Shown here piece after piece: positions 5,703 through 60,324 of a stretch of DNA of 64,000 nt. This stretch comes from Escherichia coli (GTDB lineage: Bacteria; Pseudomonadota; Gammaproteobacteria; Enterobacterales; Enterobacteriaceae). The stretch's first letter is position 1, and the number at the start of each line of letters is the position of its first letter. The notes under the pieces are model-generated. The model was not told the origin of the DNA. It saw only the letters and a list, made by a program, of their open reading frames with translations, and made no database searches. The DNA lies in the NCBI RefSeq assembly GCF_050920415.1, contig NZ_CP169309.1; one strand, written 5' to 3'. Made by a program: the position numbers and the translations under genes.

Positions 5703-5738
5703 AAATATTTATCAGTATGTACTGGAACTAACTTCATT

Positions 5739-6674
5739 ATGACTATTTATTTTATAAACTGGGTTGCAGATTATGAATTAAAAATGATCCAGTACCTGAA
5801 AAAAAAGTACAAGATAAAAAACATAACGACACCAAAAAAATACAACTGGATTAATAAGAAAATCTCAAAAATAGGGATGGATAATGCATGGCTGGGGCGA
5901 TTATTCATCAAACATTACCTAAATGATATTAAAAAAGATGACATAATTATCTTTAATGACAGTGTTATTAATAAAGGTATCAATAAACAAATATTAAAAA
6001 ACATTAACTGTCATAAAGTTTTGCTTCTAAGAAATACTGTTAGCGAAGATTTTATTTTTGATAACGCCAATTATTTCGATGTTATATATGATTTTGAACA
6101 TAGATTTATAGGGAATGAAAAGACCAAAGCAATAGAACAATTTTTTCCTATAGGGATGGAGGAGATTACGAATTATAACTTATCTGACAAAAATAACAGT
6201 CAGCCAATATGTTTCTTTCTTGGTCGAGATAAAGGGCGTCTTCAAATAATTAATGAGTTAGCCGATAGACTAGCAACACTAGGATGTAAGTTAGATTTTA
6301 ATGTTGTCAAAGATAAGACATCATCACCGACTTCAAAGTATTTGATTGAAAAACAAATGCCTTATGAAGAGAATATTAGAAGAACATTAAATGCTAATAT
6401 AATTGTTGATATAACTAAAGAAAACCAATCTGGTTGGACTCTTCGTATACTTGAGGCGCTATTTTTCAATAAGAAATTAATCACCAATAATATAAATATA
6501 CTTACTTCAGAAATCTATAGTGAGTCTCGCTTTTTTATAATAGGTCATGATGATTGGGATAAGTTAGAGTATTTTATTAACTCATCTGTTAAACCAATGG
6601 ATTATGATAGTTTATATAAATTCAGTCCAGATAAAATGATGTCAACGATTGTTTCTGATTTTATAGATAAATAA
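5739..6674 (+). CDS. waaS: LPS core biosynthesis protein WaaS (K-12 core-type specific), 311 aa
   Basis: AT-rich 311-aa ORF at the waaS position of the K-12-type core cluster. Confidence 0.75.
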
Positions 6675-6717
6675 AACCGTTAAAACAGTGAGTTTTACTC
6701 AATTAATGAGATCTTCT

Positions 6718-35500: not shown

Positions 35501-37536
35501 CCGTCTATGGCATTGGTCAGGTTAGTGATATTGCTGGTGTTGGTGGCGATGTTGGTGGTGTTGGTAGCGATATTGGTGGTGTTTGCCGCCACATCGTCCT
35601 TGGTCGCTTTCAGCTGAGAACCGTTAACGGCGTCGGTGCTGGTGTCAGAGAGCTCGCCAGCGGTGACGTTAGTGATTCTGTTGGTGGCGTTAGTACCGTG
35701 TGCAGCGGTGAATGCGCCTGTGGCGTCGTCCCATTTCAGGGCGTCTTCACCGAGGTTAGTCACCGTATCAGTCAGGTTAGTGATACTGGTGGTGTTGCCA
35801 GCCACTTCGCTCGTCAGGTTAGTGATGTTGGTGGTGTTAGCCGCCACATCGTCCTTGGTCGCTTTCAGCTGAGAACCGTTGACGGCGTCGGTGCTGGTGT
35901 CAGAGAGTTCGCCAGCGGTGACATTGGTGATTTTGCTGGTGACGTCGGTGCCGTGAGCGGCGCTGAACGCGGTGCCATTCCACAGCAGGGCATCATCATT
36001 GAGACTATCTACGGCATCGGTCAGGTTAGTGATATTGGTGGTGTTGCCAGCCACTTCGCTCGTCAGGTTAGTGATGTTGGTGGTGTTAGCCGCCACATCG
36101 TCCTTGGTCGCTTTCAGCTGAGAACCGTTGACGGCGTCGGTGCTGGTGGCTGAAAGGTCGCCAGCGGTAACGTTAGTGATTTTGCTGGTGGCATCTGTAC
36201 CATGTGCCGCACTATATCCCCTTTTAAGGTTGTCCCATTGTATCGTATTCGTGTTTAGATCCGCTAAGGCGTCGCCAACATTGCCATAAATACCATTTTT
36301 CAGTCTGTAATTCGGGGAAGTCACCACGCCCTGCGAATTGACGGTCGCTCCTCCACCAAGATTATCCGCTACTGACTTACTAATAGCATAAAGCTGTGAT
36401 CCATTGATGGCATCAGTACTGTCAGTGTCGATATCACCTTTTGCCATATTGACAATTTTTCGCTGAGCTGTTGTGTTACCCACGGAGACAGTATCCGCTT
36501 CAGTCGCGACAGAATCAGCACCCAGAGCAATTGAATTTTTACCTTGAGCAGTGGCCTGAGCACCAATTGCAATGCCATTTTCTAAACCGGCATAACTGCC
36601 TTGTCCAAGAGCAATGGCATTTGCCCCACCGGTAATACTCCCATTTCCCAGTGCGATTGCATTTACGCCGTCAGCTTTATTCCCCTGACCGATGGCAATG
36701 GCACCCGCAGCGATTGCCTGGCTTTGATTACCCAGAGCAATCGTATTATCGGTATTTGCAATACTCCCGTAGCCCAACGCGATACTGTTAAGCCCATTTG
36801 CCTCAGCTTTAGTACCCACTGCCGTTGCATTTTCAGCGGCTTCGGTCTCAGCGCCAACCGCAACCGCGTTTGCGGCGCTGGCAATGGACAGTCTACCTAA
36901 TGCAAGGCTGTCTTCACCACTAGCAGCACTCTCTCTACCTGCGGCAATGGAATTAGTTCCTGACGCCTTTGCCAGTCTCCCGAATGCAAGAGCATCCATA
37001 GCACTTGCTACTGTATCCTTGCCCAACGCTATGGTGCCTTCAGCTGTAGCTTGTGCAGAATTCCCCAGTGCAAGGGTATAATCGCTGGTCGCTTTAGCCG
37101 CACTGCCGATGGCGATTGAACGGCTACCCGTGGAAACCGTTGATTGCCCTAAGGCGACCGATCTTTCTCCTGACGAATTACTTGAGAAGCCAATTGCGGT
37201 ACTTCCCACCCCGGCATTAGCTCTTGCACCGACAGCAACACTCCCGCTACCCGTTGTGCCTGTACCCATTGTATCTGATGAGGCGACGGCCTCTTTACCA
37301 ATAGCAATCCAGTTATCACTCAGTGGCGTTTCGCCTGCAATTTCTTCTGCGCTTTTACCACCGTCAAGTGAAACCGAAGCATAGGCTCCAACTGATGAGA
37401 GTAACCCACCCGCAACCAGGGCAGAAATTAACAGCTTACTGCGCCCGCTCTTTTTGCCACGGCTCTTCGCCGTTTCGCTGGCAACGCTATAGCTGCCCGT
37501 CGCCGGATTCCAGATAACTTTAAATATTTTGTTCAT
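32560..37536 (-). CDS. upaG: Trimeric autotransporter adhesin (YadA-like; UpaG/EhaG-type), 1658 aa
   Basis: N-terminal extended signal peptide [18 protein letters not shown]...; long Gly/Ala/Ser/Thr/Asn-rich passenger with YadA-like head and neck repeats; C-terminal membrane anchor ...[31 protein letters not shown]. Confidence 0.85.
35150..36230 (-). repeat. In-frame tandem repeats (about 250 bp / 83 aa, roughly 4 copies) inside the adhesin passenger domain
   Basis: Protein repeat unit ...[61 protein letters not shown]... recurs; identical antisense ORFs in the track (35165, 35387, 35636) reflect the nucleotide repeats. Confidence 0.8.
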
Positions 37537-41454: not shown

Positions 41455-41800
41455 ATGTTTTTACCCGAGAGGGCTGGGGTGAGGCTTTTCCCTCACCCAA
41501 ACCCTCTCCGTGAGGAGAGGGGCCGCGCCGGATGCGGCGCAAACGCCTTATCCGGCCTACAAGAACGTGCAAATTCAACAAATTGTGCTTTTTTTTGTAG
41601 GCCTGATAAGCGTAGCGCATCAGGCAATCAGCCCATCTTCTCCATGTGGAGAGGGGCCGCGCCGGTTGCGGCGTAAACGCCTTATCCGGCCTACAAGAAC
41701 GTGCAAATTCAACAAATTGTGCTTTGTTTTTGTAGGCCTGATAAGCGTAGCGCATCAGGCAATTAGCCCCACCGTCTCCATGTGGAGAGAGTGGGGTTGG
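41455..41800. repeat. Tandemly duplicated BIME/REP unit (two copies of about 125 bp) in the mtlA-mtlD intergenic region
   Basis: Two near-identical blocks containing gccggatgcggcg(c/t)aaacgccttatccggcctacaagaacgtgcaaattcaacaaattgtgc...gtaggcctgataagcgtagcgcatcaggc. Confidence 0.8.
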
Positions 41801-44616: not shown

Positions 44617-45195
44617 ATGGATCTGTTGATTGTTTTAACTTACGTGGCGCTGGCATGGGCGGTCTTTAAAATCTTCCGTATTCCGGTGAATCAGTGGACG
44701 CTGGCGACGGCGGCGCTGGGAGGCGTTTTTCTGGTAAGCGGTTTGATTTTGTTGATGAACTACAACCACCCTTACACTTTTACCGCACAGAAAGCGGTGA
44801 TTGCTATTCCCATCACGCCACAGGTGACGGGGATCGTGACTGAAGTCACTGACAAGAATAATCAGCTTATTCAGAAGGGCGAGGTGCTTTTTAAGCTCGA
44901 CCCGGTACGTTATCAGGCGCGAGTCGACAGACTTCAGGCTGACCTGATGACGGCGACGCATAATATAAAGACGCTGCGCGCGCAGCTCACTGAAGCGCAA
45001 GCCAATACCACCCAGGTTTCAGCGGAGCGTGACCGCTTGTTTAAAAATTATCAACGTTACCTGAAAGGCAGCCAGGCGGCGGTAAATCCGTTCTCAGAAC
45101 GTGATATCGACGATGCGCGGCAGAATTTTCTCGCGCAGGATGCGCTGGTGAAAGGTTCGGTGGCGGAACAGGCGCAAATCCAGAGCCAGCTCGAC
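44617..45195 (+). pseudogene. yibH: yibH 5' fragment (HlyD-family membrane fusion protein), 193 codons, interrupted by IS insertion
   Basis: [23 protein letters not shown]... reading frame runs into IS left end at 45196; the rest of the gene resumes at 47324. Confidence 0.85.
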
Positions 45196-45296
45196 TGTCA
45201 GCGCCAATGATATAAGACAGTAATTCACCATTTGGATTGTCCGCTCCACCCAACATGTTGTTTCCTTAAGGTTCCTACACCACAAAGGGAACACTC

Positions 45297-46343
45297 ATGC
45301 TGAGCAGAGAGGACTTTTACATGATAAAGCAAATGCGCCAGCAAGGTGCGTATATTGTTGATATTGCCACTCAGGTTGGTTGCTCTGAGCGGACTGTCAG
45401 ACGGTACCTGAAATACCCGGAACCTCCGGCCAGAAAAACACGCCACAAAATGGCCAAACTCAAGCCGTTCATGGACTATATCGACATGCGTCTGGCTGAG
45501 AATGTCTGGAACGGCGAGGTCATCCTGGCGGAAATCAAAGCGATGGGTTATACCGGTGGCCGTTCCATGTTGCGTTACTACATCCAGCCCAAACGTAAGA
45601 TGCGGCCATCGAAGAAAACGGTTCGCTTCGAAACTCAGCCCGGTTACCAGCTACAGCATGACTGGGGAGAAGTTGAGGCTGAGGTTGCCGGGCAACGATG
45701 CAGGGTTAACTTCGCGGTTAATACGCTGGGGTTCTCACGTCGCTTCCATGTCTTCGCGGCACCAAAGCAGGATGCTGAACATACCTATGAGTCACTGGTC
45801 CGCGCCTTTCGCTACTTCGGCGGCAGCGTGAAAACCGTGCTGGTCGATAACCAGAAAGCCGCAGTGCTGAAAAATAACAACGGGAAGGTGGTGTTCAACT
45901 CCGGGTTCCTGCTGCTGGCCGATCACTATGGCTTCCTGCCACGGGCCTGCCGTCCACGAAGGGCCAGAACCAAAGGTAAGGTGGAACGGATGGTGAAATA
46001 CCTCAAGGAAAACTTCTTCGTCCGGTACCGCCGGTTCGACAGCTTCGCCCATGTTAATCAGCTACTGGAGCAGTGGATGGCTGACGTTGCCGACAGGCGG
46101 GAACTTCGCCAGTTCAGGCAGACACCGGAACAGCGCTTCACGCAGGAACAGGTGCATCTGCAGGCGCTGCCAGGTACGGACTTCGATACCAGCTACTTCG
46201 ATATCCGTCATGTCTCCTGGGATGGCTATATCGAGGTTGGCGGGAACCGTTACAGCGTGCCGGAAAGCCTGTGTGGCCAGCCGGTATCAATACGGATCTC
46301 GCTGGATGATGAACTGCGATTTACAGTAATGAGCAACAGGTAG
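45297..46343 (+). pseudogene. istA: IS21-family transposase IstA, frameshifted near 3' end (348 aa as read; about 390 aa if the -1 shift around 46313-46343 is repaired, then ending at 46468)
   Basis: HTH N-terminus and integrase-core-like body; alternative frame open from 46313 to TGA at 46466-46468, which overlaps the istB ATG. Confidence 0.8.
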
Positions 46344-46455
46344 CATCGCACCGTCTCTGTTCGGCTGTATACGGCTGGCAGACCGTGCCGGAGCATCACG
46401 CCCCACTCTGGCAGCAGGTCAGTCAGGTGGAACACAGGCCGTTGAGTGCCTATGA

Positions 46456-47262
<807 letters not shown>

Positions 47263-47323
47263 TGACCAATAGCGGACATTAAAAATGGCGAAAAACGGCC
47301 AATAATCTTGGCGTTGACACGAC

Positions 47324-47881
47324 AGTATGGTTAACGGTGAGCAGTCGCAGATTGTCAGCTTAAGGGCGCAGCTTACCGAAGCGAAATATAACCTTGAGCA
47401 GACCGTCATTCGCGCGCCGAGCAATGGCTACGTTACTCAGGTACTGATCCGCCCAGGTACATACGCAGCTGCCTTGCCGCTACGTCCGGTGATGGTTTTC
47501 ATCCCCGAGCAAAAACGGCAAATTGTCGCCCAATTTCGGCAGAACTCGCTGTTACGTCTGAAACCCGGCGATGATGCGGAAGTAGTGTTTAACGCGCTAC
47601 CTGGGCAGGTGTTCCACGGCAAACTGACTAGTATTTTACCTGTCGTGCCAGGTGGTTCGTATCAGGCGCAGGGGGTACTGCAATCATTAACCGTCGTACC
47701 CGGCACGGACGGTGTGCTGGGAACCATCGAACTGGACCCTAACGCTGATATCGATGCTTTACCCGACGGCATCTACGCCCAGGTGGCAGTTTACTCCGAC
47801 CATTTCAGCCATGTTTCGGTGATGCGGAAGGTGCTGCTAAGAATGACCAGTTGGATGCATTATCTTTATTTGGATCATTGA
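47324..47881 (+). pseudogene. yibH: yibH 3' fragment (185 codons); joins in-frame with 44617-45195 to give 378 aa once IS and TSD are removed
   Basis: ...[32 protein letters not shown]... typical HlyD/EmrA-like; frame arithmetic confirms. Confidence 0.85.
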
Positions 47882-48185
47882 GGGGGGCGGGGGAGATTAT
47901 GGAACTTTGCTCCTTGTAAGGACTAATTATTTTTGCATATTACTTCATTGGCTGCGATGATTTTTCTTTAATATTCATTAGGTTGAGAAGTTCTTGATGA
48001 GTGTGCTCTCATTGGATTTTTTATCCGTCTTGTTCTGCCGCAGGATCAGACTATACATCGTCGAGATCGCAATGATTATGAATTGTTCCTCTGCGACGAT
48101 GCTAATCAAAAAAGTGCTGGAGTGCTTTTCCATCTATTGCGATGATGGTTTTATTATCTGAAGAATGACAGTCACACATCCAGCT

Positions 48186-48457
48186 AATAAAGAACTCGTG
48201 AAATTTTCCAGGACTGATACAGGACACAACTCTGGTAATGATATCGTGAATAGGAATACCATATTAAAAATCACCATATTGCTTCAACAAATCGAGATGA
48301 GTCTCACCAGAATCCTCTATATCTTCCCATCCTTCAGCTCCGGAAATGATGGCGAAAATAATCAGCACTAGGATATCTGATAATTTATACTCTACTTTCC
48401 AGACTTGTCTGTAATCGGGACAGTAGAAATATGCTCCATTAATTTTTTAAGTTCCAT
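48186..48457 (-). pseudogene. H-repeat (ISAs1-family) transposase N-terminal fragment, degraded copy 1 (frameshift and in-frame stop)
   Basis: Begins ATG-GAA-CTT-AAA-AAA (MELKKLM...) like copy 2 at 50276-50572 but carries a 1-nt deletion and a stop. Confidence 0.7.
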
Positions 48458-48915: not shown

Positions 48916-49128
48916 TTATAAAAAATCCTGAATACATTGGTCCATCTGAAATGAATTGAAATTTATCCCATGCTGACTATTCATTTCATAAATCAACGTT
49001 TCACCAAAACTTGTTAATGACAAAGTTCCTTTGGATGTATTACATAAAAAATAATTATTTCCTGCGTTTAGAGTCCAGGGAATTCCAGATAAAAAAATAA
49101 AAATTAATGCTCTATCTATATTGCTCAT
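48916..49128 (-). CDS. Small hypothetical protein (70 aa) with N-terminal hydrophobic segment; candidate immunity protein for the orphan muramidase-like toxin domain
   Basis: ORF start overlaps the stop of the orphan toxin ORF by 17 bp; MSNIDRALIFIFLSGIPWTLNAG... Confidence 0.35.
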   Translation of the reverse strand: MSNIDRALIFIFLSGIPWTLNAGNNYFLCNTSKGTLSLTSFGETLIYEMNSQHGINFNSFQMDQCIQDFL

Positions 49129-50276
49129 AATTAGCCCTTATTCTGTCATCATATCCTCGCTGACTTTGCCCATTATAACATAGAGCAAAGTTAAGCCAAT
49201 CTTTATCTCTAATAGCACGCAATAATACAGGATTAGATTTTATGAAGTTAATGAATGCCGCCAGATGGTTTTTCTCTGACTCTGAAATCGATATTATAAA
49301 CTCTTCGGGCGAAGAGTACCCGGCAGCTTGGTAATTTGAAGCCAATATCTGAAATTTACCCCACGATGCCGATTTAAGCGCAGCTTGCTTATCTAAAACA
49401 TATGCACGAAGTAATTTTTGATATTGCTCCGATCGTGTTCCATAACCGCCAGAACGGCTGTTGGAAATATCAGGTTGAGAATCATACACACCATTCGTAT
49501 ATCGATGGAAATGATGTCTTTCAAAAAGAATTGAGGGGACGTAATCATCTTCTTGTTCAAATTTAAAATAGCTACCGGAACTACCAGTTTCAGTTTTTGC
49601 AACAGCTTTAATTGCAGCCACTTCGCATTGTAGTGTCCTTGCAGCATTTTCATAGTCTGCATCATCAATGGTATCTCCGTTATAAAATCGTAAAAATTCC
49701 AATGGAATAAGTTCATTATTTACAGGAGTTTTTGGGTAATTGCTATTATTAATAGCATTCAAAAACACAACCGGATGAAAATGCCACACAGCATCATCAC
49801 TATTAAACGGAGACACCCCGCTCATCCACTCCAGATCCAGCTGCCACTTTTCACAGTATGCCACTTCCTCGGGTCCAGATCTTTATAAAACCCTTCCCAG
49901 CGTCCCGTCGAGCGACCGCCGTACCACTCGCTGTGGTGTCTGACTGTCAGACGATTCACCACATTTCTCACCAGTGGTTCACGCACGGTCAGCGCCTGTC
50001 TGATCTCTTCCTCCGTCACTTTTCCATCACCGTCCTGATCCATACCCGCCATCAGCTCACGATAAAAGGGCGGTACCTGCTCATACAGCCACTCATCTCC
50101 CTGTTCTGCGGCACGGCTTATTGAGTCAAACGCTTCCGGCACCCATCCTTCGTACGGGCTGTACGTCATGTCACCGCTGCTGTTCTCCTCCAGCGGCTGA
50201 AAACCCAGCTTCAGTAAATCATACTGTCCGGCCTCTTCAACATCCTTCTGTGGCAGCCAGCCGGTTCCGGTGATAT
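49112..50276 (-). pseudogene. Displaced (orphan) effector 3' module: shared pre-toxin region with EF-hand loop plus a distinct C-terminal N-acetylmuramidase-like domain; 5'-truncated and carrying a 1-nt frameshift near 49866
   Basis: 49764-50276 is near-identical to 52116-52630 of the full-length effector; downstream domain has ...FERHHFHRYT... and ...SWGKFQILASNY... motifs; no start codon; two overlapping ORFs (49822-50391, 49112-49864). Confidence 0.75.
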
Positions 50277-50572
50277 TAAGCCGCCTCTGGTTTCCTTTTA
50301 ATAAAGCACTCGTGAAATTTTGCAGGACTGATACAGGATACAACTCTGGCAATGGTATCGTGAACAGGAATACCATTATCAAAATCACCATATTGCTTCA
50401 AAAAATCGAGATGTGTTTCCCCAAAATCCTCTATATCTTCCCAGCCTTCTGCACCCGAAATAACGGCACAAATAGTCAACAGTAGAATATCCGATAATTT
50501 ATGTTGCACTTTCCAGGCTTGTCTGTAATCGGGGATAATAGAAATATGTCCCATCAATTTTTTAAGTTCCAT
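50276..50572 (-). pseudogene. H-repeat (ISAs1-family) transposase N-terminal fragment, copy 2 (about 92 codons then truncated)
   Basis: [64 protein letters not shown]... matches the start of E. coli H-rpt proteins, then loses homology. Confidence 0.8.
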
Positions 50573-50873
50573 TTTGTTCTCCTTAATTATGTAAGGAGTA
50601 TTTGATCATGTATAAGCAATAAAAAACAGCTTTAGGTAATGAGGAATATCTCAATTTTCAAACATAAAATGCGAATTGTCTAGTACAAAAAAGCAGCGTT
50701 ACGTGATCTTTCCCTGCCTGCCTGTACGATATCCCTCAAAAATAATTTTCCAGTCAGTTATTCATGTCTAACTTAAAATCATAAAACATTTAAATTAATA
50801 ATAAACAAATTCAACCTAGTCGCATTATTATTTTAATAACACAGCATCGATTTCATAAAAAACTGCACAATGG

Positions 50874-51284
50874 TCATCCAGTCCATTTGCAATCAGTACC
50901 ATCATCATTATATGCCTCAATATTTTCTTCAAACTCAGTTGTTTTCCCACTTATTGATTTATAATGAAACAAATTAAATCTTGCACCTTGTGTGGAAACA
51001 ACATACAACCCATTAATTTTTCCATTTACAACCTCGCTCCATGCATAAGAAAATTCAGAAGGCCTGTCATCGAAAGTCACTTCTAATTTATTTATAAACG
51101 CAAGAGGTATAAATTTTGAGGATTTCTCATAAATCACATAACCTAAAAAAATATCGCCAGACGATATTTCAACAAACTTTAAATTTGTTTTCCCAGCGCT
51201 AAAACAGCCTACCGTTGTTTGTTGTTTAGCCAATAAACAACAAGGCACCAAACAAAACAGTAAAACCAATAAGTTAACTTTCAT
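50874..51284 (-). CDS. Candidate immunity protein (136 aa, cleavable signal peptide) for the upstream GH19-like effector
   Basis: MKVNLLVLLFCLVPCCLLA...; 5 bp downstream of effector stop; small secreted protein. Confidence 0.55.
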   Translation of the reverse strand: MKVNLLVLLFCLVPCCLLAKQQTTVGCFSAGKTNLKFVEISSGDIFLGYVIYEKSSKFIPLAFINKLEVTFDDRPSEFSYAWSEVVNGKINGLYVVSTQGARFNLFHYKSISGKTTEFEENIEAYNDDGTDCKWTG

Positions 51285-51289
51285 ATCAA

Positions 51290-53779
51290 TTACTCCAGTT
51301 CAGTTATTCGTCTCTCTACAAATGTGGATATATTCCTTTTTTCTATTCCATATACTTTTCTATCACCCTCACGCCCTTCCTGAGGAAACGGATGCAGGTC
51401 AATTAATTCTTTCGCCCTTCTATAACCTTTTAATGCTTCTTCGTTACTCTTGATCGTCCCTCTTCGGGAGCTATCAGGATCATGCCATATCCCCCATCCC
51501 AAAGCATATACTTTATTATCATATACGTCACTATCATCAAACAAGAAATCGTCGTTCATTGCTTTCTGATTTAAATGCTCGGCAGCAAGTGAGGTAACCA
51601 ATTTATTAAATATCGACAACCGTTCATCATAATGATTATACCCTCCATTAATCACTGCTGTAATTTTATTAAAATCATCATTTTTAGCATCTTCATTTAT
51701 TCTTTTGAATATATTGAAATACCAAAACGCAGATAATACGCAATGTGGGGAGGATATAAGTTTATCTCTTGCGGAATCTGAAGATGTTACGTCCTCATTG
51801 ATATATTCCCCATAGGCGGTGTAATTACTTTCCCCTGTAACTTGTATTAAGCCTCGGCCATACCACGGACTATATGAAGCTGATTCACCATTAATTTCTT
51901 TGGTATATCTAAAATAACCGCTCTCGTGAATAATTTGAGCAAGAAAATGGGCTTTTTCTCTACAAGTGGTCATACCAAACCGAATAAACCCTGCATTTAT
52001 ATCGTAGAGGTACCTTTTGAGAAGACCTTCACTTACTGCAGGAGCAACTTTTTTTAATTCATCTAATGTTATATCTCTGTTGCAAGCACACACAGATTTG
52101 GAATTAATAGCGTCCAAAAACACAACCGGATGAAAATGCCACACAGCATCATCACTATTAAACGGAGATACCCCGCTCATCCACTCCAGATCCAGCTGCC
52201 ACTTCTCACAGTATGCCACTTCCTCTGTGTCCAGATCTTTATAAAATCCTTCCCACCGCCCTGTCGAGCGCCCTCCGTACCATTCGCTGTGGTGTTTAAC
52301 TATCAGATGATTCACCACATTTCTCACCAGTGGTTCACGCACGGTCAGCGCCTGTCTGATCTCTTCCTCCGTCACTTTTCCATCACCGTCCTGATCCATA
52401 CCCGCCATCAGCTCACGATAAAAGGGCGGTACCTGCTCATACAGCCACTCATCTCCCTGTTCTGCGGCACGGCTTATTGAGTCAAACGCTTCCGGCACCC
52501 ATCCTTCGTACGGGCTGTACGTCATGTCACCGCTGCTGTTCTCCTCCAGCGGTTGAAAACCCAGCTTCAGTAAATCATACTGTCCGGCCTCTTCAACATC
52601 CTTTTGTGGCAGCCAGCCGGTTCCGGTGATATTAAACCACCACTGCTGCGATTCATCCGTGATCGGTGTCGTGGCTTCCCGCGGAAGAACGCGCTGAGCA
52701 CCCAGTGTGGCTGCGGTTGCGGTAAATACCTCCTGTCCCGGAACGGCCTGCCGGGTGTATAAAATTATCCCTTTTGGTGCCAGAACAGTCCGTTTTTCTC
52801 CCTTAACGCCTGCCGGGTTGGATAAGAACTTTGGCATATTCGGGTCTGTACTCAGAACCTCCAGATGGACGAACCACTCGCGCTCAATCTCACCGCTTCC
52901 CTCGCCAGGATAATCCTCGCATCCCATAAATCCGACCGGTGTTCCGGCACTGACTTTCCACTCTTCCGTTTCGTCGACCGTCTGTACCGAGTCAAAAATG
53001 CCTTTTGCCTTCGCCTTCTGCATCCACTCAGGCATCAGCATCTGTATTTCGCCATCTGACTCCATCAGATCCGGATCCAGGGTCACCCAGTACTGCTCAT
53101 TCCCCGGTTTATTGCCTTCCAGCAGGCGAACCAGTCCGAATGTCGTCAGGACCGGCTGGCCGTTATTGGTCACGTAAAAACGTCCGGTCCGGGATGACAC
53201 AAACCGATCTCCCGCATTAAGTGTCCTGTTTCCGCTGATTTTCGGGGGTATCCAGTACGTGGCATGATCTCCGCTTTCCTGCCCCTCGGGAAGGCCGTTC
53301 TTTCCCGGGATGTATCGGTGCAGCAATATGCCACCATGCCCGGTTTTAACTTTATAGCAGGGGGAGCCGGGATAATCGTTCACCGGGGCCAGATGCATAT
53401 AGAGACAGTAAAATTCCAGCCAGCTTTCTTTTTTTTGCGGGTCTGGCTGGCACTGCGATTTCACCAGAACAAATGTGCTGCTGTAACGGAGTTGCTGCCC
53501 TTTGTAGGTGCCTTTCAGGTAATCATTATTTATCCGGTACGCCGCAATGGTGCCATCGGCCATAAACTGAAGAGGAACCGGTTCTCCGGTAGCGGCGGTA
53601 TCCGGTTTCAGGGCTGATAACGGATTAGACACGTCACTGATATGTATCCCGCCGTGCCACAGCCCGTTTCCACCCAGCAGCCAGGTTCCGTGCGCTTCTT
53701 TGTCAATAAGCCGCATTATCTCATCCAGCGAGCGAAACTCTTTGCCTTCTTTATCCCTGATGGGATGGCTGATTTTCAT
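51290..53779 (-). CDS. VgrG-linked candidate T6SS effector, 829 aa: N-terminal domain of unknown function, central EF-hand-like Ca-binding loop, C-terminal GH19/lysozyme-like peptidoglycan hydrolase domain
   Basis: 9 bp downstream of vgrG stop; DQDGDGKVTEEE loop; C-terminal ...AHFLAQIIHESGYFRYTKE...YGRGLIQVTGESNYTAYG...LSAFWYFN... resembling the GH19 / COG3179 signature. Confidence 0.7.
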   Translation of the reverse strand: MKISHPIRDKEGKEFRSLDEIMRLIDKEAHGTWLLGGNGLWHGGIHISDVSNPLSALKPDTAATGEPVPLQFMADGTIAAYRINNDYLKGTYKGQQLRYSSTFVLVKSQCQPDPQKKESWLEFYCLYMHLAPVNDYPGSPCYKVKTGHGGILLHRYIPGKNGLPEGQESGDHATYWIPPKISGNRTLNAGDRFVSSRTGRFYVTNNGQPVLTTFGLVRLLEGNKPGNEQYWVTLDPDLMESDGEIQMLMPEWMQKAKAKGIFDSVQTVDETEEWKVSAGTPVGFMGCEDYPGEGSGEIEREWFVHLEVLSTDPNMPKFLSNPAGVKGEKRTVLAPKGIILYTRQAVPGQEVFTATAATLGAQRVLPREATTPITDESQQWWFNITGTGWLPQKDVEEAGQYDLLKLGFQPLEENSSGDMTYSPYEGWVPEAFDSISRAAEQGDEWLYEQVPPFYRELMAGMDQDGDGKVTEEEIRQALTVREPLVRNVVNHLIVKHHSEWYGGRSTGRWEGFYKDLDTEEVAYCEKWQLDLEWMSGVSPFNSDDAVWHFHPVVFLDAINSKSVCACNRDITLDELKKVAPAVSEGLLKRYLYDINAGFIRFGMTTCREKAHFLAQIIHESGYFRYTKEINGESASYSPWYGRGLIQVTGESNYTAYGEYINEDVTSSDSARDKLISSPHCVLSAFWYFNIFKRINEDAKNDDFNKITAVINGGYNHYDERLSIFNKLVTSLAAEHLNQKAMNDDFLFDDSDVYDNKVYALGWGIWHDPDSSRRGTIKSNEEALKGYRRAKELIDLHPFPQEGREGDRKVYGIEKRNISTFVERRITELE

Positions 53780-53788
53780 GTTCAGTCC

Positions 53789-55990
53789 TTATCGTGAGAA
53801 TCTTCCCGGCCGTTGTGGCGGTACCTTATCCTGCTGGGGAGGATCAAAGGCTTCCTGTACATTTTTCCGTGGTGGCTCCGCCCCTTCAGTTCCAGGTCCG
53901 CCATTGTCATAATCTGCCAGCGCTTTCAAAACCGCCGGTCGTAGTGTCGGCACCGGCGTTCCCGGACTACCGCCGCTATTGAGATTGATTTTCGGCCCGA
54001 CGATGTCCACGCCCCCTGAATGGATGACCACAAACGAACCACCCACCTTCAGGGTGATTTTACCGCCACTCTCCAGTACGATTTCATCCCGGACCTTCAT
54101 TCCCAGCGCACCGGTAATCTTCCTCGCCAGGTCGCCCTTCACCTCCAGACTGTGCGTTCCCTCCACCAGACTGATATGGTTCCCCGTCGTCTTATGCTCC
54201 TGCTTCCCTTCCACCGTCACTTTACGGTCGTTTCTGACATACAGGCCGTCATCGTGACTCACGCTCACCGTCCGGTCATTCGTCACCTTCAGCGTCTGGT
54301 CATTACGTACCGTTATGCGCCGGTCGTTCGCCACCGTGATACTCTGGTCGTGGCCCCCTTCTTTTCTGGTGCCGACCTCAACCGTCTGCCCCTTCACCAC
54401 CCTTATCTTCTGGTCGTTACCGATGGTCTCCGTATGGTCATGCTTCACGTCCGTCGTCCGGTCGTTAAGCACCTCCGTGTCCATGTTCTTCTGCGCGTGG
54501 ATATACACCTGCTCACTGTCCGTCGCATCCTCGAAACGCAGTTCATTAAAGCCGCTTCCTTTATAGGTCTTCGAGCGGATGGTCATCTGCGTCCGCGTGC
54601 CCGGTAAATCCCCCGGTGAACGGTTATCTTCATGGTAGGTCCGCCCCGTCACAATGGGCTGGTCCGGGTCGCCGTTCAGAAAGTCCACTATCACTTCCTG
54701 ACCCACACGCGGTATCGCCAGATTGCCGAACCCCGGTCCCGCCCATGCCTGCGACACCCGTATCCAGCATGAACTCTCCTCCGTCATCCCGTGATAACGG
54801 TCCCAGTGAAACTTCACCCGTACCCGGCCATGCTCGTCGCAGAATATCTCCTCGCCCTTCGGCCCGGTCACGATGGCACTCTGCGGGCCGTCCACCTTCG
54901 GCTTCGGCAGGGGCTGTGAGCGCCAGGTCCGGTCTGCCGGGATGACCGTGATATGGTTACTCAGTGTCGTTCCCCTCCCCTGGCTCCCGTGCAGCGCCTG
55001 CGGCTGGCTCCCCGTCAGCGTGCTGCTCACCACCTGCCACTCACGGTTCGGGTTCGCTCCCTGTACCGGATGCCCCGTCAGGGTGAACCGCCGTCCCGGC
55101 CACAGCGCCGGGGAGTTACTGATACCTGTGGCGGTTTCAGCACTGTTACGCAGCCCTTCCAGCCGGTAGCGGGTAAAGTCCTGACCATGCTGCTCGTCCT
55201 TGTAGCGCCCCGGCCAGTCCAGGATTTTGTACTGCTTCAGTTGCTCGTTGAGGTTTTCAGCATCCTCAATGTAAATACCCGGCCAGTCCGGCACCTTAAA
55301 CGTGTGGTCTTTTGAACGCACCTGCGAGGGCCGCACCTGCGCCTGGTAGCGGAACAGGCTGATGCACGCCGTCGTCACCTCACGGGTGTTCGGGTTAAAC
55401 GGTATCTCCCCGTACACCGGCAGGCCCGCCACATCATCGCACAGCGTGAGCGTCTGCTCCGGGCTGTCGTCAGCGTATCTGTCATAAAAGAAGATGCCTT
55501 CCTCCGCCCACAGCCGGGTCAGAAACGCCAGGTCGCTTTCACCGTACTGGACGCAGAACTCCCGTGCCGGGTGGCTCTCATAAAAGCGCGGCGTCCACTG
55601 CGTCACTCCGTCCTCGTTTAACAGCGTGGCGGAGATGGCCTGAATGTCCTGCTGCTGGAAGATTCGGTAGTTCTGCCGCAGCCCGCTGCGCCACAGGGGC
55701 GGGCGTATCTGAAGGTGGTACTGCATCTGCCAGCCGTTGTGCTCCTTCATGCCTAACCCCGACACCACACCGCTCACATAACGCAGCGCCGTGCCACCCT
55801 GCCAGATGGTCAGCACGGCCCCCTTCTCCAGCAGCTTCTCCGCCGTCTGGCGGAACGAGTCGCTGGCAACGTCCACATCCAGGACGAACGGCGATGAGTA
55901 TGCCTGCGTGAGGCGGAAATCCACCACCGCGAACGTCTCCGGCACCAGTCCGTCCACCGTCAGCGTAAAACGCAGCCCTTTTAATGACAT
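53789..55990 (-). CDS. vgrG: T6SS spike protein VgrG (copy B), 733 aa
   Basis: MSLKGLRFTLTVDGL...; gp27/gp5-like regions (...GQEVIVDFLNGDPDQPIVTGRTYH...) and C-terminal beta-helix repeats (VKHDHTETIG...ITVANDRRITVRNDQTLKVTNDRTVSV...). Confidence 0.9.
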   Translation of the reverse strand: MSLKGLRFTLTVDGLVPETFAVVDFRLTQAYSSPFVLDVDVASDSFRQTAEKLLEKGAVLTIWQGGTALRYVSGVVSGLGMKEHNGWQMQYHLQIRPPLWRSGLRQNYRIFQQQDIQAISATLLNEDGVTQWTPRFYESHPAREFCVQYGESDLAFLTRLWAEEGIFFYDRYADDSPEQTLTLCDDVAGLPVYGEIPFNPNTREVTTACISLFRYQAQVRPSQVRSKDHTFKVPDWPGIYIEDAENLNEQLKQYKILDWPGRYKDEQHGQDFTRYRLEGLRNSAETATGISNSPALWPGRRFTLTGHPVQGANPNREWQVVSSTLTGSQPQALHGSQGRGTTLSNHITVIPADRTWRSQPLPKPKVDGPQSAIVTGPKGEEIFCDEHGRVRVKFHWDRYHGMTEESSCWIRVSQAWAGPGFGNLAIPRVGQEVIVDFLNGDPDQPIVTGRTYHEDNRSPGDLPGTRTQMTIRSKTYKGSGFNELRFEDATDSEQVYIHAQKNMDTEVLNDRTTDVKHDHTETIGNDQKIRVVKGQTVEVGTRKEGGHDQSITVANDRRITVRNDQTLKVTNDRTVSVSHDDGLYVRNDRKVTVEGKQEHKTTGNHISLVEGTHSLEVKGDLARKITGALGMKVRDEIVLESGGKITLKVGGSFVVIHSGGVDIVGPKINLNSGGSPGTPVPTLRPAVLKALADYDNGGPGTEGAEPPRKNVQEAFDPPQQDKVPPQRPGRFSR
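54085..54930. repeat. About 0.85-kb block near-identical to 58422-59267 (internal vgrG segment shared by both paralogs, offset 4337 bp)
   Basis: Antisense ORFs 54020-54607 and 54616-54945 are letter-identical to parts of 58204-58944 and 58953-59534; VgrG proteins identical over about 270 residues. Confidence 0.85.
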
Positions 55991-56145
55991 GATGACCTCC
56001 CTGGTATTGCTACAGGAAAAAGTAATTAACCGATATTGACCGTACCTTCTGATATTCTCTCACTGATTCATTATCTGTATTTCCCATGAACATTCTCATT
56101 TCAACAGGAAAACCAACGAATTGTAGCCATGACAATAAGTTAACA

Positions 56146-57075
56146 TTAATAATTCCTCAACGAATAAGGAGGAGATGCCCTGTCCCCATCAATAGTAACC
56201 ACGACCTGATTTGATCTTATTTTGAATATATTATCATTACCGCCATGATAGCCAAATCGTGCTAAAAAATCCTGAAATAGACCAGGTCCTCTATAAGGTC
56301 CACAGATTCTCCAAACCCGCCACTCCTCTATGCCATACGTTATTTTATCTATAGGATTAGTACACTCTCTTTCTGCCCGCCAGTTCATAATAGAAAGAAA
56401 ATACTCATATATATATTGTTCTGCAAACCACTCTTGATTAACTATTGTAAATTCTACCGTCCCTATATTATAACGATGAATGCCCGGTAAAAAGGCATAA
56501 TAATCGTTCAATGTGACATCAAAGGATAGCTCTTTCCCTGGTAATATCTCGCGCCAAACAGATTTACTTTTCCATTCACCAAAGCTACATTTTGTTTTTT
56601 TTAAAAAATCCAACTGAATGTTATCCATTATCGGTATAAACACACCACTACACAAGGAAGAGTAAGGCCCGCCGTTAACGTCAAGAGGAAGAGTTAGTCG
56701 ATGAACAAAATAAGATCCCTGGCTTTTATTCGATAAAACCACTGCAGCTGCTACAATATTTTCTTTCTGATGCACGGAAAGATGAAGATATATTTTATTT
56801 TTATCCTGATTATACTGACTCTCATTTTTACTGATAGTATAATATTGAAAAACAGCATAGGCTGAAAGATCATCATAATAATCATAATAATTAAGCCTTG
56901 TCGGTTCTACACGAGGATAGACACCAAGTTTTTCCATTACTCCATTCCAATGTAACTTCCCATATCTGTAATGAACCGCATAATCGCCAGAGATATCATA
57001 AGCAAATATTGGATGCACCCAAGAAAAAAAAGCAATAAAAACAATCCATCTAGCAAGCATATACTCCCCCGTCAA
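56146..57075 (-). CDS. Candidate immunity protein (309 aa, N-terminal signal peptide) for the upstream HExxH effector
   Basis: MLARWIVFIAFFSWVHPIFAYD... signal peptide; 9 bp downstream of the metallopeptidase-like gene; Trp/Tyr-rich. Confidence 0.5.
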   Translation of the reverse strand: MTGEYMLARWIVFIAFFSWVHPIFAYDISGDYAVHYRYGKLHWNGVMEKLGVYPRVEPTRLNYYDYYDDLSAYAVFQYYTISKNESQYNQDKNKIYLHLSVHQKENIVAAAVVLSNKSQGSYFVHRLTLPLDVNGGPYSSLCSGVFIPIMDNIQLDFLKKTKCSFGEWKSKSVWREILPGKELSFDVTLNDYYAFLPGIHRYNIGTVEFTIVNQEWFAEQYIYEYFLSIMNWRAERECTNPIDKITYGIEEWRVWRICGPYRGPGLFQDFLARFGYHGGNDNIFKIRSNQVVVTIDGDRASPPYSLRNY

Positions 57076-57084
57076 ATAAAAGCA

Positions 57085-57930
57085 TCAATATGGTACAGGA
57101 ATCTCGAAATAACGTTCGATATTATATGCATTCTGAAACAGTTCTGATTTTTTATCATTTTTTAATTTAGTGGCATGAGCAATATATTCGTCACCTGTAC
57201 TATACTCTATATCTACCGGCATATCTTCCGTCCACATGCCTCCAAACTTAAGTGAATCCCCGTACCTTATAAAGTGAGATAGTTCATGGCAGAGTGTCGA
57301 TGCCTTAGAGTTTTCCCCAGTGAATGGCCTATCTATAAATCTTTGTCCTATAGTTATACTTACCAAACTTTTAAAGCTTCCAGATTTTACACCCAAAATC
57401 TGATCGTAAGTTACATTGGCAGCATAAGCGTCATTATCTGTACAATTCACAAAGTTACCAATTTTGGGCCTGATTACGTCTTTGTCAACATATTCATTAC
57501 CCCCTTTGTCATTAAGAACAAGATTACAATTGGCATCACGTTTGAGGAAATGGTCATGAACGGTAACGTCTACACAATCACCTTCCACAGATAATTCCCC
57601 ACATATCTCATACAGGCGAGTAACGCCATTTCTCATATAATCCCTTGCCTTTATATTCTCTGTAAACAGAGTATTACGCCCCCCGAAAGGGAACTTTAAT
57701 TTAATATAAGTATTTCCATCAATGCCAAATATATTTATAAATTCCTGATTTTGTTCCGCCCCCCATTTATCACCAAGATCTTCTACTCTTTTTTTCAATA
57801 CAGCCATCTGCGCCTTCAGAGCCTCTCTCATCATTATTTTAAAATCATTAGTAATTTTCCCCTCCTTTAAAACTACACACTGTTCACCACTCTGGCTTTT
57901 TCCGCTCGTACTACCCTTTTCATCTCCCAT
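57085..57930 (-). CDS. VgrG-linked candidate effector, 281 aa, with HExxH zinc-metallopeptidase motif (TLCHELSHF)
   Basis: Follows vgrG copy A by 81 bp; HELSH motif in C-terminal third; no signal peptide. Confidence 0.6.
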   Translation of the reverse strand: MGDEKGSTSGKSQSGEQCVVLKEGKITNDFKIMMREALKAQMAVLKKRVEDLGDKWGAEQNQEFINIFGIDGNTYIKLKFPFGGRNTLFTENIKARDYMRNGVTRLYEICGELSVEGDCVDVTVHDHFLKRDANCNLVLNDKGGNEYVDKDVIRPKIGNFVNCTDNDAYAANVTYDQILGVKSGSFKSLVSITIGQRFIDRPFTGENSKASTLCHELSHFIRYGDSLKFGGMWTEDMPVDIEYSTGDEYIAHATKLKNDKKSELFQNAYNIERYFEIPVPY

Positions 57931-58011
57931 ATAAATCCTCCTTGGTATATATTTTCACTACAAACCCTGTTCCATTTATGCAAAAACACGCCAATTACAG
58001 GCGGTCACTCT

Positions 58012-60324
58012 CTATTCATTAATCCCTCCCCATATCATATCGATATTCAAATGCAACAATCTGACGTCTATTGTCTGCTCGCTGTCAGTGGTGAATATTT
58101 CCGTATACCCATCCTTATCCGTTTCTCCGCGGGTCTGCGTGCCGTCCTCAAAGAAGGCAATGTAGCGTGTCTCTGAATACGGTATCCCGTCATCGTCTGT
58201 AAAATGGAACTGGAGAGTATATTTTTCAGGGTTCTCATCATCATTCTCATCCTCCAGCGCCTCCAGTACAACCGGTTGCAGCGTCGATACTGGCGTCCCC
58301 GGACCTCCCCCACCATTCAGGTTTATCTTCGGCCCCACTATATCCACGCCGCCAGAGTGTATCACCACGAACGAACCGCCCGCTTTCAGGCTTATCTGGC
58401 TGCTGCTCTCCAGCACGATATCCCCGTCCACCTTTATCCCCAGCGCGCCACTCACCTTCTCCGCCAGGTCACCCTTCACCTCCAGGCTGTGTTTCCCCTC
58501 CACCAGGCTGATATGGTTTCCCGTCGTCTTATGCTCCTGCTTCCCTTCCACCGTCACTTTACGGTCGTTTCTGACATACAGGCCGTCATCGTGACTCACG
58601 CTCACCGTCCGGTCATTCGTCACCTTCAGCGTCTGGTCATTACGTACCGTTATGCGCCGGTCGTTCGCCACCGTGATACTCTGGTCGTGACCCCCTTCTT
58701 TTCTGGTGCCGACCTCAACCGTCTGCCCCTTCACCACCCTTATCTTCTGGTCGTTACCGATGGTCTCCGTATGGTCATGCTTCACGTCCGTCGTCCGGTC
58801 GTTAAGCACCTCCGTGTCCATGTTCTTCTGCGCGTGGATATACACCTGCTCACTGTCCGTCGCATCCTCGAAACGCAGTTCATTAAAGCCGCTTCCTTTA
58901 TAGGTCTTCGAGCGGATGGTCATCTGCGTCCGCGTGCCCGGTAAATCCCCCGGTGAACGGTTATCTTCATGGTAGGTCCGCCCCGTCACAATGGGCTGGT
59001 CCGGGTCGCCGTTCAGAAAGTCCACTATCACTTCCTGACCCACACGCGGTATCGCCAGATTGCCGAACCCCGGTCCCGCCCATGCCTGCGACACCCGTAT
59101 CCAGCATGAACTCTCCTCCGTCATCCCGTGATAACGGTCCCAGTGAAACTTCACCCGTACCCGGCCATGCTCGTCGCAGAATATCTCCTCACCCTTCGGC
59201 CCGGTCACGATGGCACTCTGCGGGCCGTCCACCTTCGGCTTCGGCAGCGGCGCGTGACGCCACGTCCTGTCTGCCGGTATCACCTCAAACTGATTGCTCA
59301 GTGTCGTCCCTTCACCGTGACTCCCGTGCAGCGCCTGCGGCTGTTCTCCCCGCAGTGTGCTTCCCACAACCTGCCATTCCCGGTTCAGCGTCGCTGACGG
59401 ATGGCCCGTCAGCCGGAACCGCGTTCCCGGCCACAGCCGCGCCGTGTTACACACCCCGCTCGCCGTCTCCGCCCCGTTCCGCCACCCTTCCGTCTGGTAA
59501 CGCGCAAAATCCTGGCCATGCTGCTCATCCTTGAAACGCCCCGGATAATCAAATATCTCGTACTGCGTTCCCTGTCCGTTCAGGCTCTCCCCGTCATGGC
59601 TGTAGTACCCCGGCCACCCCGGCGTTTTGAACGTATAATCCTGCGTCTCCACCGACGCCACGCTTATCTGCGCACGGTAACGGAAGTCGCGGATGTACTC
59701 TGTCGTGCCTCCGGTCGTGGTATTCGGGTTAAACGCCAGCGCCCCCATTCCCGTCAGCCCCGCCACGTCATCACACACCGCCAGCTTCTGTTCCGGCCCG
59801 TCCTGACTGCAGCGTTCATAAAAGAAGATACCTTCCTCCGCCCACAGCCGGGTCAGGAATGTCAGGTCGCTCTCCCCGTACTGCACGCAGAACTCCCGCG
59901 CCGGGTGCGCCTCATAGAACAGCGGCATCCACGCCGTCACCCCGTTCTCTTCAAGAAGCTGCGCTGATATCGTCTGAATGTCCTGCTGCTGGAAGATACG
60001 GAAGTTCTGCCGTAACCCTGCCCGCCACAGCGGCGGGCTGATGCTCAGGGAATAACGCATCTGCCAGTCGTTGTTCTCACCGAGCTGCACCTCTGTCACG
60101 ATACCGCTGACGTAACGCTGTGCAGTGTCGCCCTGCCAGACCGTCAGCACCGCGCTTTTCTCCAGAAAATCTTCTGCCGTCAGGTCAGACAGTCCGCTGG
60201 CGATATCCACATCCAGGATGAACGGTGTGCAGTGGTGCTGGTACAGACGGAAGCTCACCACCGCCGTCGCCATCTCCACAATACCGTCCACCGACAGCGT
60301 GAAACGTAATCCTTCTGCTGCCAT
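58012..60324 (-). CDS. vgrG: T6SS spike protein VgrG (copy A) with about 100-aa C-terminal extension, 770 aa from MAAEGLRFTL (the ORF in the track starts 11 codons upstream)
   Basis: Same domain order as copy B; extra C-terminal tail ...EKYTLQFHFTDDDGIPYSETRYIAFFEDGTQTRGETDKDGYTEIFTTDSEQTIDVRLL... Confidence 0.9.
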   Translation of the reverse strand: MAAEGLRFTLSVDGIVEMATAVVSFRLYQHHCTPFILDVDIASGLSDLTAEDFLEKSAVLTVWQGDTAQRYVSGIVTEVQLGENNDWQMRYSLSISPPLWRAGLRQNFRIFQQQDIQTISAQLLEENGVTAWMPLFYEAHPAREFCVQYGESDLTFLTRLWAEEGIFFYERCSQDGPEQKLAVCDDVAGLTGMGALAFNPNTTTGGTTEYIRDFRYRAQISVASVETQDYTFKTPGWPGYYSHDGESLNGQGTQYEIFDYPGRFKDEQHGQDFARYQTEGWRNGAETASGVCNTARLWPGTRFRLTGHPSATLNREWQVVGSTLRGEQPQALHGSHGEGTTLSNQFEVIPADRTWRHAPLPKPKVDGPQSAIVTGPKGEEIFCDEHGRVRVKFHWDRYHGMTEESSCWIRVSQAWAGPGFGNLAIPRVGQEVIVDFLNGDPDQPIVTGRTYHEDNRSPGDLPGTRTQMTIRSKTYKGSGFNELRFEDATDSEQVYIHAQKNMDTEVLNDRTTDVKHDHTETIGNDQKIRVVKGQTVEVGTRKEGGHDQSITVANDRRITVRNDQTLKVTNDRTVSVSHDDGLYVRNDRKVTVEGKQEHKTTGNHISLVEGKHSLEVKGDLAEKVSGALGIKVDGDIVLESSSQISLKAGGSFVVIHSGGVDIVGPKINLNGGGGPGTPVSTLQPVVLEALEDENDDENPEKYTLQFHFTDDDGIPYSETRYIAFFEDGTQTRGETDKDGYTEIFTTDSEQTIDVRLLHLNIDMIWGGINE

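Follow-up and report, generated by a model that had tools for sequence, protein, structure and literature searches.

A near-identical gp5 core in mosaic vgrG genes of a vgrG island at the Escherichia coli rhsA site

Rhs elements of Escherichia coli, located at the rhsA, rhsC, rhsD and rhsE sites, reportedly combine conserved cores with displaced C-terminal tips and are associated with H-rpt/ISAs1 elements. Recombination of vgrG genes and displacement of effectors have been described in Vibrio cholerae (Kirchberger et al. 2017, PMC5361080; Unterweger et al. 2014, cited in the former), and intra-chromosomal recombination has been described for the vgrG islands of Pantoea (10.1101/2023.03.17.533219). 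The VgrG1-Tle1 complex of enteroaggregative E. coli (EAEC; PDB 6sjl) and Pseudomonas aeruginosa VgrG2b, which carries a fused M35 domain, are examples of VgrG spikes with a DUF2345/TTR internal adaptor (PMC10673891 and references therein). DUF2345/TTR regions also serve as internal adaptor for an E. coli M35 toxin (PMC10673891). The TseP family comprises chimeric amidase-lysozyme effectors of type VI secretion systems (T6SS), and TseP binds VgrG2 directly (PMC11893102). Here we analyse a vgrG island in a stretch of 64,000 nucleotides (nt) from E. coli contig NZ_CP169309.1 (RefSeq assembly GCF_050920415.1), hereafter the window. The island carries two vgrG (tssI) paralogs, vgrG-A and vgrG-B, which share a near-identical internal block between diverged ends. 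Our overall explanation, to which we assign a probability of roughly 85%, is that recombination homogenises a vgrG family in this genome, that tail, effector and immunity gene form modular cassettes, and that the tails serve as built-in adaptors.

The shared block and its copies in the genome

The vgrG island lies between yibF-selA and the yibH/yibI genes, which are disrupted by an insertion sequence (IS). This position corresponds to the K-12 rhsA site, and all genes of the island are on the minus strand. The two genes and the parts of them that matter here are as follows (aa, amino acids).

58012-60324, minus strand: vgrG-B, 770 aa, with its ATG at 60324 as in RefSeq, where it is annotated as tssI; b-type gp27 N-terminus, shared core and beta-type tail
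53789-55990, minus strand: vgrG-A, 733 aa; rare a-type gp27 N-terminus, shared core and alpha-type proline-rich tail
54183-54910, minus strand: homogenised block in vgrG-A, codons 361-603, with 2 mismatches in 728 nt to the vgrG-B copy
58520-59247, minus strand: homogenised block in vgrG-B, at a constant offset of 4337 from the vgrG-A copy
54092-54182, minus strand: graded 3' transition zone in vgrG-A (vgrG-B partner 58429-58519), ~82% identical, beyond which identity is ~71%

Both genes are intact and encode full-length TssI proteins, which score 589 bits (A) and 591 bits (B) with TIGR03361 at a cut-off of 186. The gp27-like hub domain Phage_GPD (Pfam PF05954) is found with E-values of 7.5e-75 in VgrG-A and 1.6e-75 in VgrG-B, and both proteins contain the OB fold (Phage_base_V, E 5e-14) and Gp5_trimer_C (E 6e-22). 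In VgrG-B these Pfam domains span residues 33-328, 385-451 and 468-622, respectively. The best PDB sequence match of VgrG is P. aeruginosa VgrG1 (4mtk, E 8.6e-92).

The block was delimited by direct global alignment of vgrG-A and vgrG-B. Within its 728 nt the two genes mismatch only at 54353 and 54854, and the surroundings on both sides are 65-80% identical. In gene orientation the 5' edge is abrupt, falling at 54910/54911, and positions 54911-54930 are already diverged. The preliminary description of this locus had correctly recognised two paralogs with a near-identical internal block at the constant offset of 4337. The limits it gave (54085-54930 and 58422-59267, 846 nt) were roughly right but ~120 nt too generous. 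It had also called the block central; in domain terms the block product, residues 361-603 of VgrG-A, is the gp5 OB fold together with the first two-thirds or so of the Gp5_trimer_C beta-helix.

Divergence is far from uniform along the gene. The N-terminal, gp27-like regions are only moderately similar, as described before: they are 70.5% identical at the nucleotide level and differ at 123 of 358 residues, with a non-synonymous divergence (dN) of 0.27 and a synonymous divergence (dS) of 0.90. The block is 99.6% identical, with none of its 243 residues changed, a dN of 0 and a dS of 0.018. After the block, the remaining helix falls back to 75.1% identity, with 19 of 87 residues different, a dN of 0.13 and a dS of 1.35. 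At the difference rate of the flanks (0.286), two or fewer differences in 728 nt have a probability of ~1e-102, and the longest identical run between the two genes is 500 nt, compared with at most 75 in 2000 permutations. Among codons that specify the same residue in both genes, 84 of 235 (36%) differ in the N-terminus and 34 of 68 (50%) after the block, compared with 3 of 243 (1%) inside it. Because dS collapses in the block relative to both flanks, recombination rather than protein constraint accounts for the block. That recent homologous recombination or gene conversion made it near-identical is strongly supported.

The block is rare. Among 5426 complete E. coli genomes, only three, the carriers of the locus, have it at 99% identity or more; the next best match is 90.7% and most lie at 80-90%. 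Therefore the block is not a generally frozen E. coli sequence. The widespread rhsE-site vgrG differs from it at 84-85 of 728 nt (11.6%). The 12.2-kb locus as a whole is 100% identical in strain MFDS1022581, and at least 80% of it is present in only three of the same 5426 genomes. The structure is seen in three independent complete RefSeq assemblies, from Korea, Tibet and Thailand.

The block also extends beyond the pair. The window's own genome has at least four block-bearing vgrG copies: the two at yibF (A and B), one at ybfA and one at ybbP. They lie up to 3.5 Mb apart, at the K-12 rhsA, rhsC and rhsD sites, and differ in the block by 2-11 nt; vgrG-A shows 2 differences to vgrG-B, 3 to the ybbP copy and 8 to the ybfA copy. 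The block is thus common to four or more vgrG copies scattered over the genome and is not confined to A and B. Downstream of the ybfA copy (rhsC site) come an S-type pyocin protein and an immunity gene, and downstream of the ybbP copy (rhsD site) an M35 gene and an immunity gene. The three copies other than vgrG-A have b-type N-termini that are ~4% apart from each other, compared with <1.5% in the block. Strain RMDEC465 carries the same islands, and from about nt 91 on there is no difference among its three b-type N-termini. Recent gene conversion between the two paralogs had been suggested previously; the collapse of dS, a shifted endpoint described below and the rarity of the block uphold recombination, and the presence of at least four copies removes the restriction to the pair. 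As a separate observation, group II intron reverse transcriptase/maturase (ltrA) genes occur inside or beside sister vgrG islands, at ybfA in MFDS1022581 (4098-5419 of the fetched locus) and at ybbP in RMDEC465 (5509-7197); one of these genes has a frameshift.

The edges of the block record exchange between copies. In RMDEC465, b-type sequence in vgrG-A continues 90 nt further upstream of the block, and these 90 nt differ at 24 positions from the vgrG-A of the window and at none from vgrG-B. Therefore tract endpoints vary between lineages, and the b-family is likely to be the donor into vgrG-A; the polarity suggested here rests on the three b-type copies being contiguous with the block. At the other edge, the ybbP copies are ~99% identical to the rhsE-site vgrG of strain THO-008 from the 3' edge of the block on, and 20-40% divergent before it. 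The ybfA vgrG of RMDEC465 joins a b-type N-terminus to the alpha tail of vgrG-A and is followed by a 921-aa glycoside-hydrolase effector. The combinations seen are a-core-alpha, b-core-beta, b-core-beta', b-core-alpha and b-core-gamma. Together with the switches in RMDEC465 and at ybbP, they show that an N-terminal module (a or b), the core and a tail module (alpha, beta, beta' or gamma) reassort, with crossovers at the block edges. Judged by these junctions, the transition zone at 54092-54182 is where crossovers between core and tail cassettes recur.

The head of vgrG-A is unusual. Its a-type N-terminal 1080 nt occur at 95% identity or more in only three of the 5426 genomes, with a next best match of 76%. 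Among the matches listed from a search of 5.8 billion proteins, the best reached 73% aa identity and all were partial or shorter; the full-length query protein itself was not returned, so that this value carries little weight. The sequence of vgrG-A, with its rare N-terminus, suggests an incoming gene whose core was overwritten. No unconverted ancestor of vgrG-A was found in a scan with the 829-aa effector that covered one genome per species and gave two loci only, one in E. whittamii and one in Pantoea without an upstream flank.

Tails, effectors and immunity genes

Downstream of the block the two genes lead into different tails and different cargo.

58051-58224, minus strand: small all-beta (TTR/Ig-like) domain predicted in the VgrG-B tail, residues ~701-758; candidate docking site for the M35-like effector
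57085-57930, minus strand: M35-like metallopeptidase gene, 281 aa, with an HExxH motif (HELSHF); placed as cargo of VgrG-B
56146-57060, minus strand: signal-peptide protein, 304 aa; putative periplasmic immunity protein to the M35-like effector
53789-53923, minus strand: alpha-type proline-rich tail of vgrG-A, ~45 aa, unrelated to the vgrG-B tail
51290-53779, minus strand: large TseP-like effector, 829 aa, with an N-domain, an EF-hand at 455-479 and a C-terminal GH19-like lysozyme domain at ~605-732; placed as cargo of VgrG-A
50874-51284, minus strand: signal-peptide protein, 136 aa; putative immunity protein to the 829-aa effector
50276-50572, minus strand: ISAs1 (H-rpt) transposase remnant by RefSeq annotation, which terminates the vgrG-A cassette
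49112-50289, minus strand: orphan effector fragment, displaced, recognised from repeats, translations and RefSeq names

The extreme C-termini of the two proteins are unrelated, in agreement with the earlier view that the C-termini diverge again. The tails are non-homologous, ~45 aa and proline-rich in vgrG-A and ~85 aa in vgrG-B, with an acidic linker and a small beta domain. An extra tail of ~100 aa had been attributed to copy A; it is vgrG-B that is longer, by 37 aa (770 versus 733). In VgrG-B the beta-helix continues, with Gp5_trimer_C matching up to residue 622. The beta tail contains a conserved domain of ~58 aa that starts '...YTLQFHFTDDDGIPYSETRYIAFFEDG...' and is kept in VgrG tails of Escherichia, Salmonella and Citrobacter. 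An AlphaFold2 model built from 24 tails of these three genera predicts an all-beta domain with a predicted local distance difference test score (pLDDT) of ~91 over residues 38-95 of the 107-aa query. Given the weak structural match of this domain, described below, the beta tail is likely but not established to be TTR-like. The tail sequence gave no match when searched against PDB sequences, and its similarity to the TTR domain of EAEC VgrG1 is undetectable.

Tail type tracks the downstream toxin in every locus examined, and N-terminal type does not. The beta tail stands upstream of an M35-type peptidase in the window, in two RMDEC465 loci, in THO-008 and in uropathogenic E. coli (UPEC) 536, and its DNA is present in hundreds of E. 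coli genomes. The alpha tail stands upstream of large glycoside-hydrolase effectors in the window, in two RMDEC465 loci and in E. whittamii. The combination of alpha tail and 829-aa effector occurs in only three E. coli genomes, and also in E. whittamii. The E. whittamii locus consists of a PAAR gene, an internally deleted vgrG with an alpha tail (92% identical) and an effector that is 95% identical over residues 1-562. In that vgrG (3863-4652 of the fetched locus) an in-frame-looking deletion joins ~80 N-terminal codons to the last ~180, and the N-terminus is 76% identical to that of vgrG-A. After residue 562 the E. whittamii effector's C-terminal domain is unlike that of the window. The proposal that the C-terminal tails diversified to match different cargo thus holds as far as the matching of tail and cargo goes; the tails are exchangeable cassettes that recombine at the 3' edge of the block rather than sequences diversified in place.

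As stated before, the locus lacks recognisable adaptor genes: among the six neighbouring proteins, NCBIfam and Pfam identify no adaptor (DUF4123/Tap, DUF1795/Eag or DUF2169) and no PAAR protein, and the intergenic gaps are too short for another gene. Related islands elsewhere carry PAAR upstream. RefSeq annotates no T6SS core gene within the window or within 12 kb of the locus, the span to which this search was limited. Since the locus has no adaptor or PAAR gene and there are published precedents (PMC10673891, PMC11893102), direct loading of effectors by the VgrG tails, without an adaptor, is plausible by analogy.

The 281-aa protein has the HELSHF motif and a match around the active site to the M35 peptidyl-Lys endopeptidase 1g12 (E 0.069), and it is named M35 family in sister genomes by RefSeq. 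The 829-aa effector matches the endolysin 9ms7 (E 1.7e-13) and the 'EF-hand domain-containing protein' 8xcl (E 5.8e-8) among PDB sequences, contains EF-hand_1 (Pfam E 4.8e-4) and is named 'glycoside hydrolase family 19' by RefSeq in RMDEC465. Its residues 1-430 match nothing in Pfam, NCBIfam or PDB sequences. Because it has an EF-hand and its C-terminal lysozyme domain matches 9ms7 and 8xcl, we group it with the TseP-type effectors. The 304-aa protein starts with a signal-peptide-like sequence (MLARWIVFIAFFSWVHPIFA...) and the 136-aa protein with a signal peptide (MKVNLLVLLFCLVPCCLLA...); Pfam and NCBIfam match neither. Both are encoded directly downstream of the effectors and have signal peptides, as expected for immunity to periplasm-acting toxins, and for this reason of position and sequence we regard them as putative immunity proteins.

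The GC content is 56-66% in the vgrG genes (53900-55900 and 58300-60300) versus ~30-39% in the C-terminal parts of the effectors and the immunity genes (49000-58300). The 829-aa gene itself shows a GC step, from ~53-55% in its N-terminal 60% to ~34-37% at the lysozyme end, which echoes the inter-domain GC step reported for TseP.

The orphan fragment at 49112-50289 repeats part of the vgrG-A cargo. It corresponds to the middle of the 829-aa gene (97% identity to 52103-52645), carries a frameshift and runs into a different toxin domain, an N-acetylmuramidase. The fragment fits a displaced older cassette. A second ISAs1 remnant, at 47961-48457, is 86% identical over 235 nt to the one at 50276-50572, and the two bracket the orphan module. 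The orphan module spans 48916-50572 and includes a 70-aa open reading frame (48916-49128) with a signal-peptide-like start, a candidate orphan immunity gene. An ISAs1 remnant ends every vgrG cassette examined, including those at the ybfA, ybbP and rhsE sites.

Proposed mechanism, rival explanations and surroundings

We propose that at least four vgrG (TssI) genes in 'vgrG islands' at the K-12 rhsA, rhsC and rhsD sites share one architecture, in which a gp27-like N-terminus (a or b) and a gp5-like core are followed by a tail cassette running into the effector, the immunity gene and an ISAs1 remnant. RecA-type homologous recombination among the copies would keep the 0.73-kb core near-identical. 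It might take the form both of non-reciprocal gene conversion and of crossovers that swap whole tail-effector-immunity cassettes, and the identity of the core would in turn make it the preferred crossover site. In such exchanges the core would provide the upstream homology arm. The ISAs1 remnants may act as distal homology arms, possibly the downstream arm, because every cassette ends in one. The core of vgrG-A would have been overwritten by resident b-family sequence, in a tract whose 5' limit is 54910 in the window and lies 90 nt farther out in RMDEC465. The tails are most likely built-in adaptors: VgrG-B would use its TTR-like domain to carry the M35-like metallopeptidase, and VgrG-A its proline-rich tail to carry the TseP-like lysozyme effector. 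The prey periplasm would be where both toxins act, and the signal-peptide proteins encoded downstream would neutralise them.

Several points weigh against parts of this scheme. No donor is assignable, because vgrG-A has 2 differences to vgrG-B and 3 to the ybbP copy, and the four copies are related almost as a star, nearly all their differences being singletons. The extant sequences do not establish conversion specifically between vgrG-A and vgrG-B, nor can the non-reciprocity of conversion be demonstrated from them. Chi sites (GCTGGTGG), sought as recombination hot spots at the block edges, are absent from 49-60 kb. On the protein side, the best Foldseek match of the beta domain in the PDB, 6sjl_A (the EAEC VgrG1-Tle1 complex), is weak (E 0.034, probability 0.99, template modelling (TM) score 0.46), and the Pfam DUF2345 match, found in VgrG-B only, is non-significant (E 0.34). 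In addition, the 281-aa protein has no Pfam or NCBIfam match, and its M35 label rests on the HExxH motif, the weak PDB match and RefSeq naming.

Two further observations concern these points. As a named donor, vgrG-B was rejected, the ybbP copy being about equally near to vgrG-A (3 versus 2 differences). The window contains six Chi sites (GCTGGTGG at 188, 1599, 34576, 36142, 36184 and 41841), all on the plus strand, versus 1.75 expected, and none of them lies in the vgrG island. This pattern agrees with Chi being strand-biased in core E. coli DNA, as is known, and absent from the low-GC cargo region.

Other explanations of the block have to be considered alongside recombination among the copies. 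Very strong purifying selection on the gp5 OB fold and beta-helix might conserve the block with no recombination at all, since all 243 of its codons agree at the protein level and this part of VgrG is the most conserved in the family (~88-90% for the block region versus ~76% for the N-terminus, against other E. coli vgrG genes). However, selection on the protein leaves synonymous differences, and these are what the block lacks: dS is 0.018 in it and 0.90 and 1.35 beside it, the same-residue codons that differ are 3 of 243 compared with 84 of 235 and 34 of 68, and the stretch is 11.6% away from the common E. coli vgrG. Selection acting alone is refuted by this synonymous-site contrast, and we give it next to no weight. 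An assembly artefact, in which a repeat was collapsed or polished across copies, is just as hard to credit. Short-read polishing can homogenise repeats of 0.7 kb, but three independent assemblies agree, copy-specific single-base differences are kept and the 5' endpoint differs in one of the assemblies.

Alternatively, vgrG might have been duplicated recently and the ends of the copies later replaced by imported alleles, with the identical middle ancestral. Cassette replacement is indeed how the 3' side evolves, and the a-type N-terminus and the alpha cassette, both rare in E. coli, could be imports. Such a history requires two independent replacements per gene without intervening divergence, however, and it leaves unexplained that the block is common to four copies at three distant loci, that the b-type copies are ~4% apart in the N-terminus and <1.5% in the block, and that vgrG-A of RMDEC465 has an extra 90 nt of b-type sequence. 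Being a recombination model as well, it differs only in the segment moved, and we consider it distinctly improbable. VgrG heterotrimers have been reported in V. cholerae. The identity of the core could be selected in itself, if identical segments allowed paralogs that differ in their tails, and even in their gp27 heads, to assemble together as heterotrimeric spikes and so to deliver two or three toxins per firing. The block coincides with the interwoven trimerisation module and is more uniform than the N-termini even among the b-type copies (<1.5% versus ~4%). Yet the gp27 parts also make trimer contacts while a and b differ at 34% of residues there, and neutral homology-limited recombination accounts for the pattern without selection. 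We regard a selected core as unlikely; if it were true, the block would be more than a passive trace left by recombination: it would be maintained as a 'universal joint', used in assembling the protein as well as in exchanging DNA cassettes.

Other repeats and insertions occur elsewhere in the window. According to RefSeq, which annotates the identical genome, yibH (HlyD-family, 44617-47881) is split by the IS21-like ISEc62, which carries istA together with a frameshifted istB. The mtlD-mtlA interval contains two 92-nt direct repeats (41505-41596 and 41639-41730) that are 95% identical and 134 nt apart, with a palindromic sequence like the repetitive extragenic palindromic (REP) elements, GCCGGATGCGGCG...CTTATCCGGCCTAC. 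In a YadA-like adhesin gene (32560-37536, 1658 aa), tandem repeats of ~249-255 nt that are 84-91% identical lie at 35150-36213.

Comparison with known systems

Modular VgrG tails and recombination-driven exchange of effectors have already been described, and the current understanding of these systems is unchanged by our analysis. The locus is a clear example of how an E. coli type VI arsenal diversifies, in which the homogenised spike core would let cargo cassettes move between islands at old Rhs sites and would also absorb an incoming diverged vgrG. It offers two natural pairings of tail and cargo, a TTR-like tail with an M35-like peptidase and a proline-rich tail with a TseP-like lysozyme, neither with a separate adaptor, which may be useful for engineering spike-loaded cargo.

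The DUF2345/TTR-containing VgrG proteins resemble VgrG-B in having a beta-helical extension followed by a small C-terminal beta domain, predicted in VgrG-B, M35-type metallopeptidase cargo and a periplasmic immunity protein, the last two being putative here. Unlike in VgrG2b, the M35-like domain of the window is encoded by a separate gene and is not fused. Unlike E. coli PAR, the window has no separate DUF2345 gene. Compared with the TTR domain of EAEC VgrG1, sequence similarity is below detection and the fold match is weak. TseP and the 829-aa protein have in common a large VgrG-linked effector with an EF-hand and a C-terminal lysozyme domain matching 8xcl, a downstream immunity gene (putative here) and the lack of an adaptor. 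An N-terminal amidase domain is a feature of TseP, whereas the corresponding region of the window effector, residues 1-430, is the part that resembles no entry in the databases searched. In addition, other C-terminal toxin domains are found in the E. whittamii relative and in the window's orphan copy, and therefore the 829-aa effector is modular itself.

At the level of the island, the likeness to the Rhs elements extends to the sites themselves (yibF, ybfA, ybbP and ansP-yddH), the homogenised core, the variable toxin tips, the orphan tips and the ISAs1 remnants. In contrast to Rhs elements, the vgrG islands have no Rhs protein; their conserved core is vgrG itself, and their cargo a free-standing effector. 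The pattern of the locus also matches the recombination of vgrG islands in Pantoea (10.1101/2023.03.17.533219). As in V. cholerae, a conserved part of vgrG appears to serve as a homology arm, the variable 3' ends covary with the effector-immunity module, and old modules are displaced downstream as orphans. The present case differs from V. cholerae in that the exchange appears to be mostly between the four paralogous islands of a single E. coli genome, as concerted evolution, in that the diverged N-terminus of one copy makes the shared part appear as an internal block, and in that the distal ends are marked by ISAs1 remnants instead of conserved flanking genes. What sets this case apart from all of these systems is a gp5 core with sharp bounds that evolves in concert in four copies, and the diverged head of one copy, which makes the block visible.

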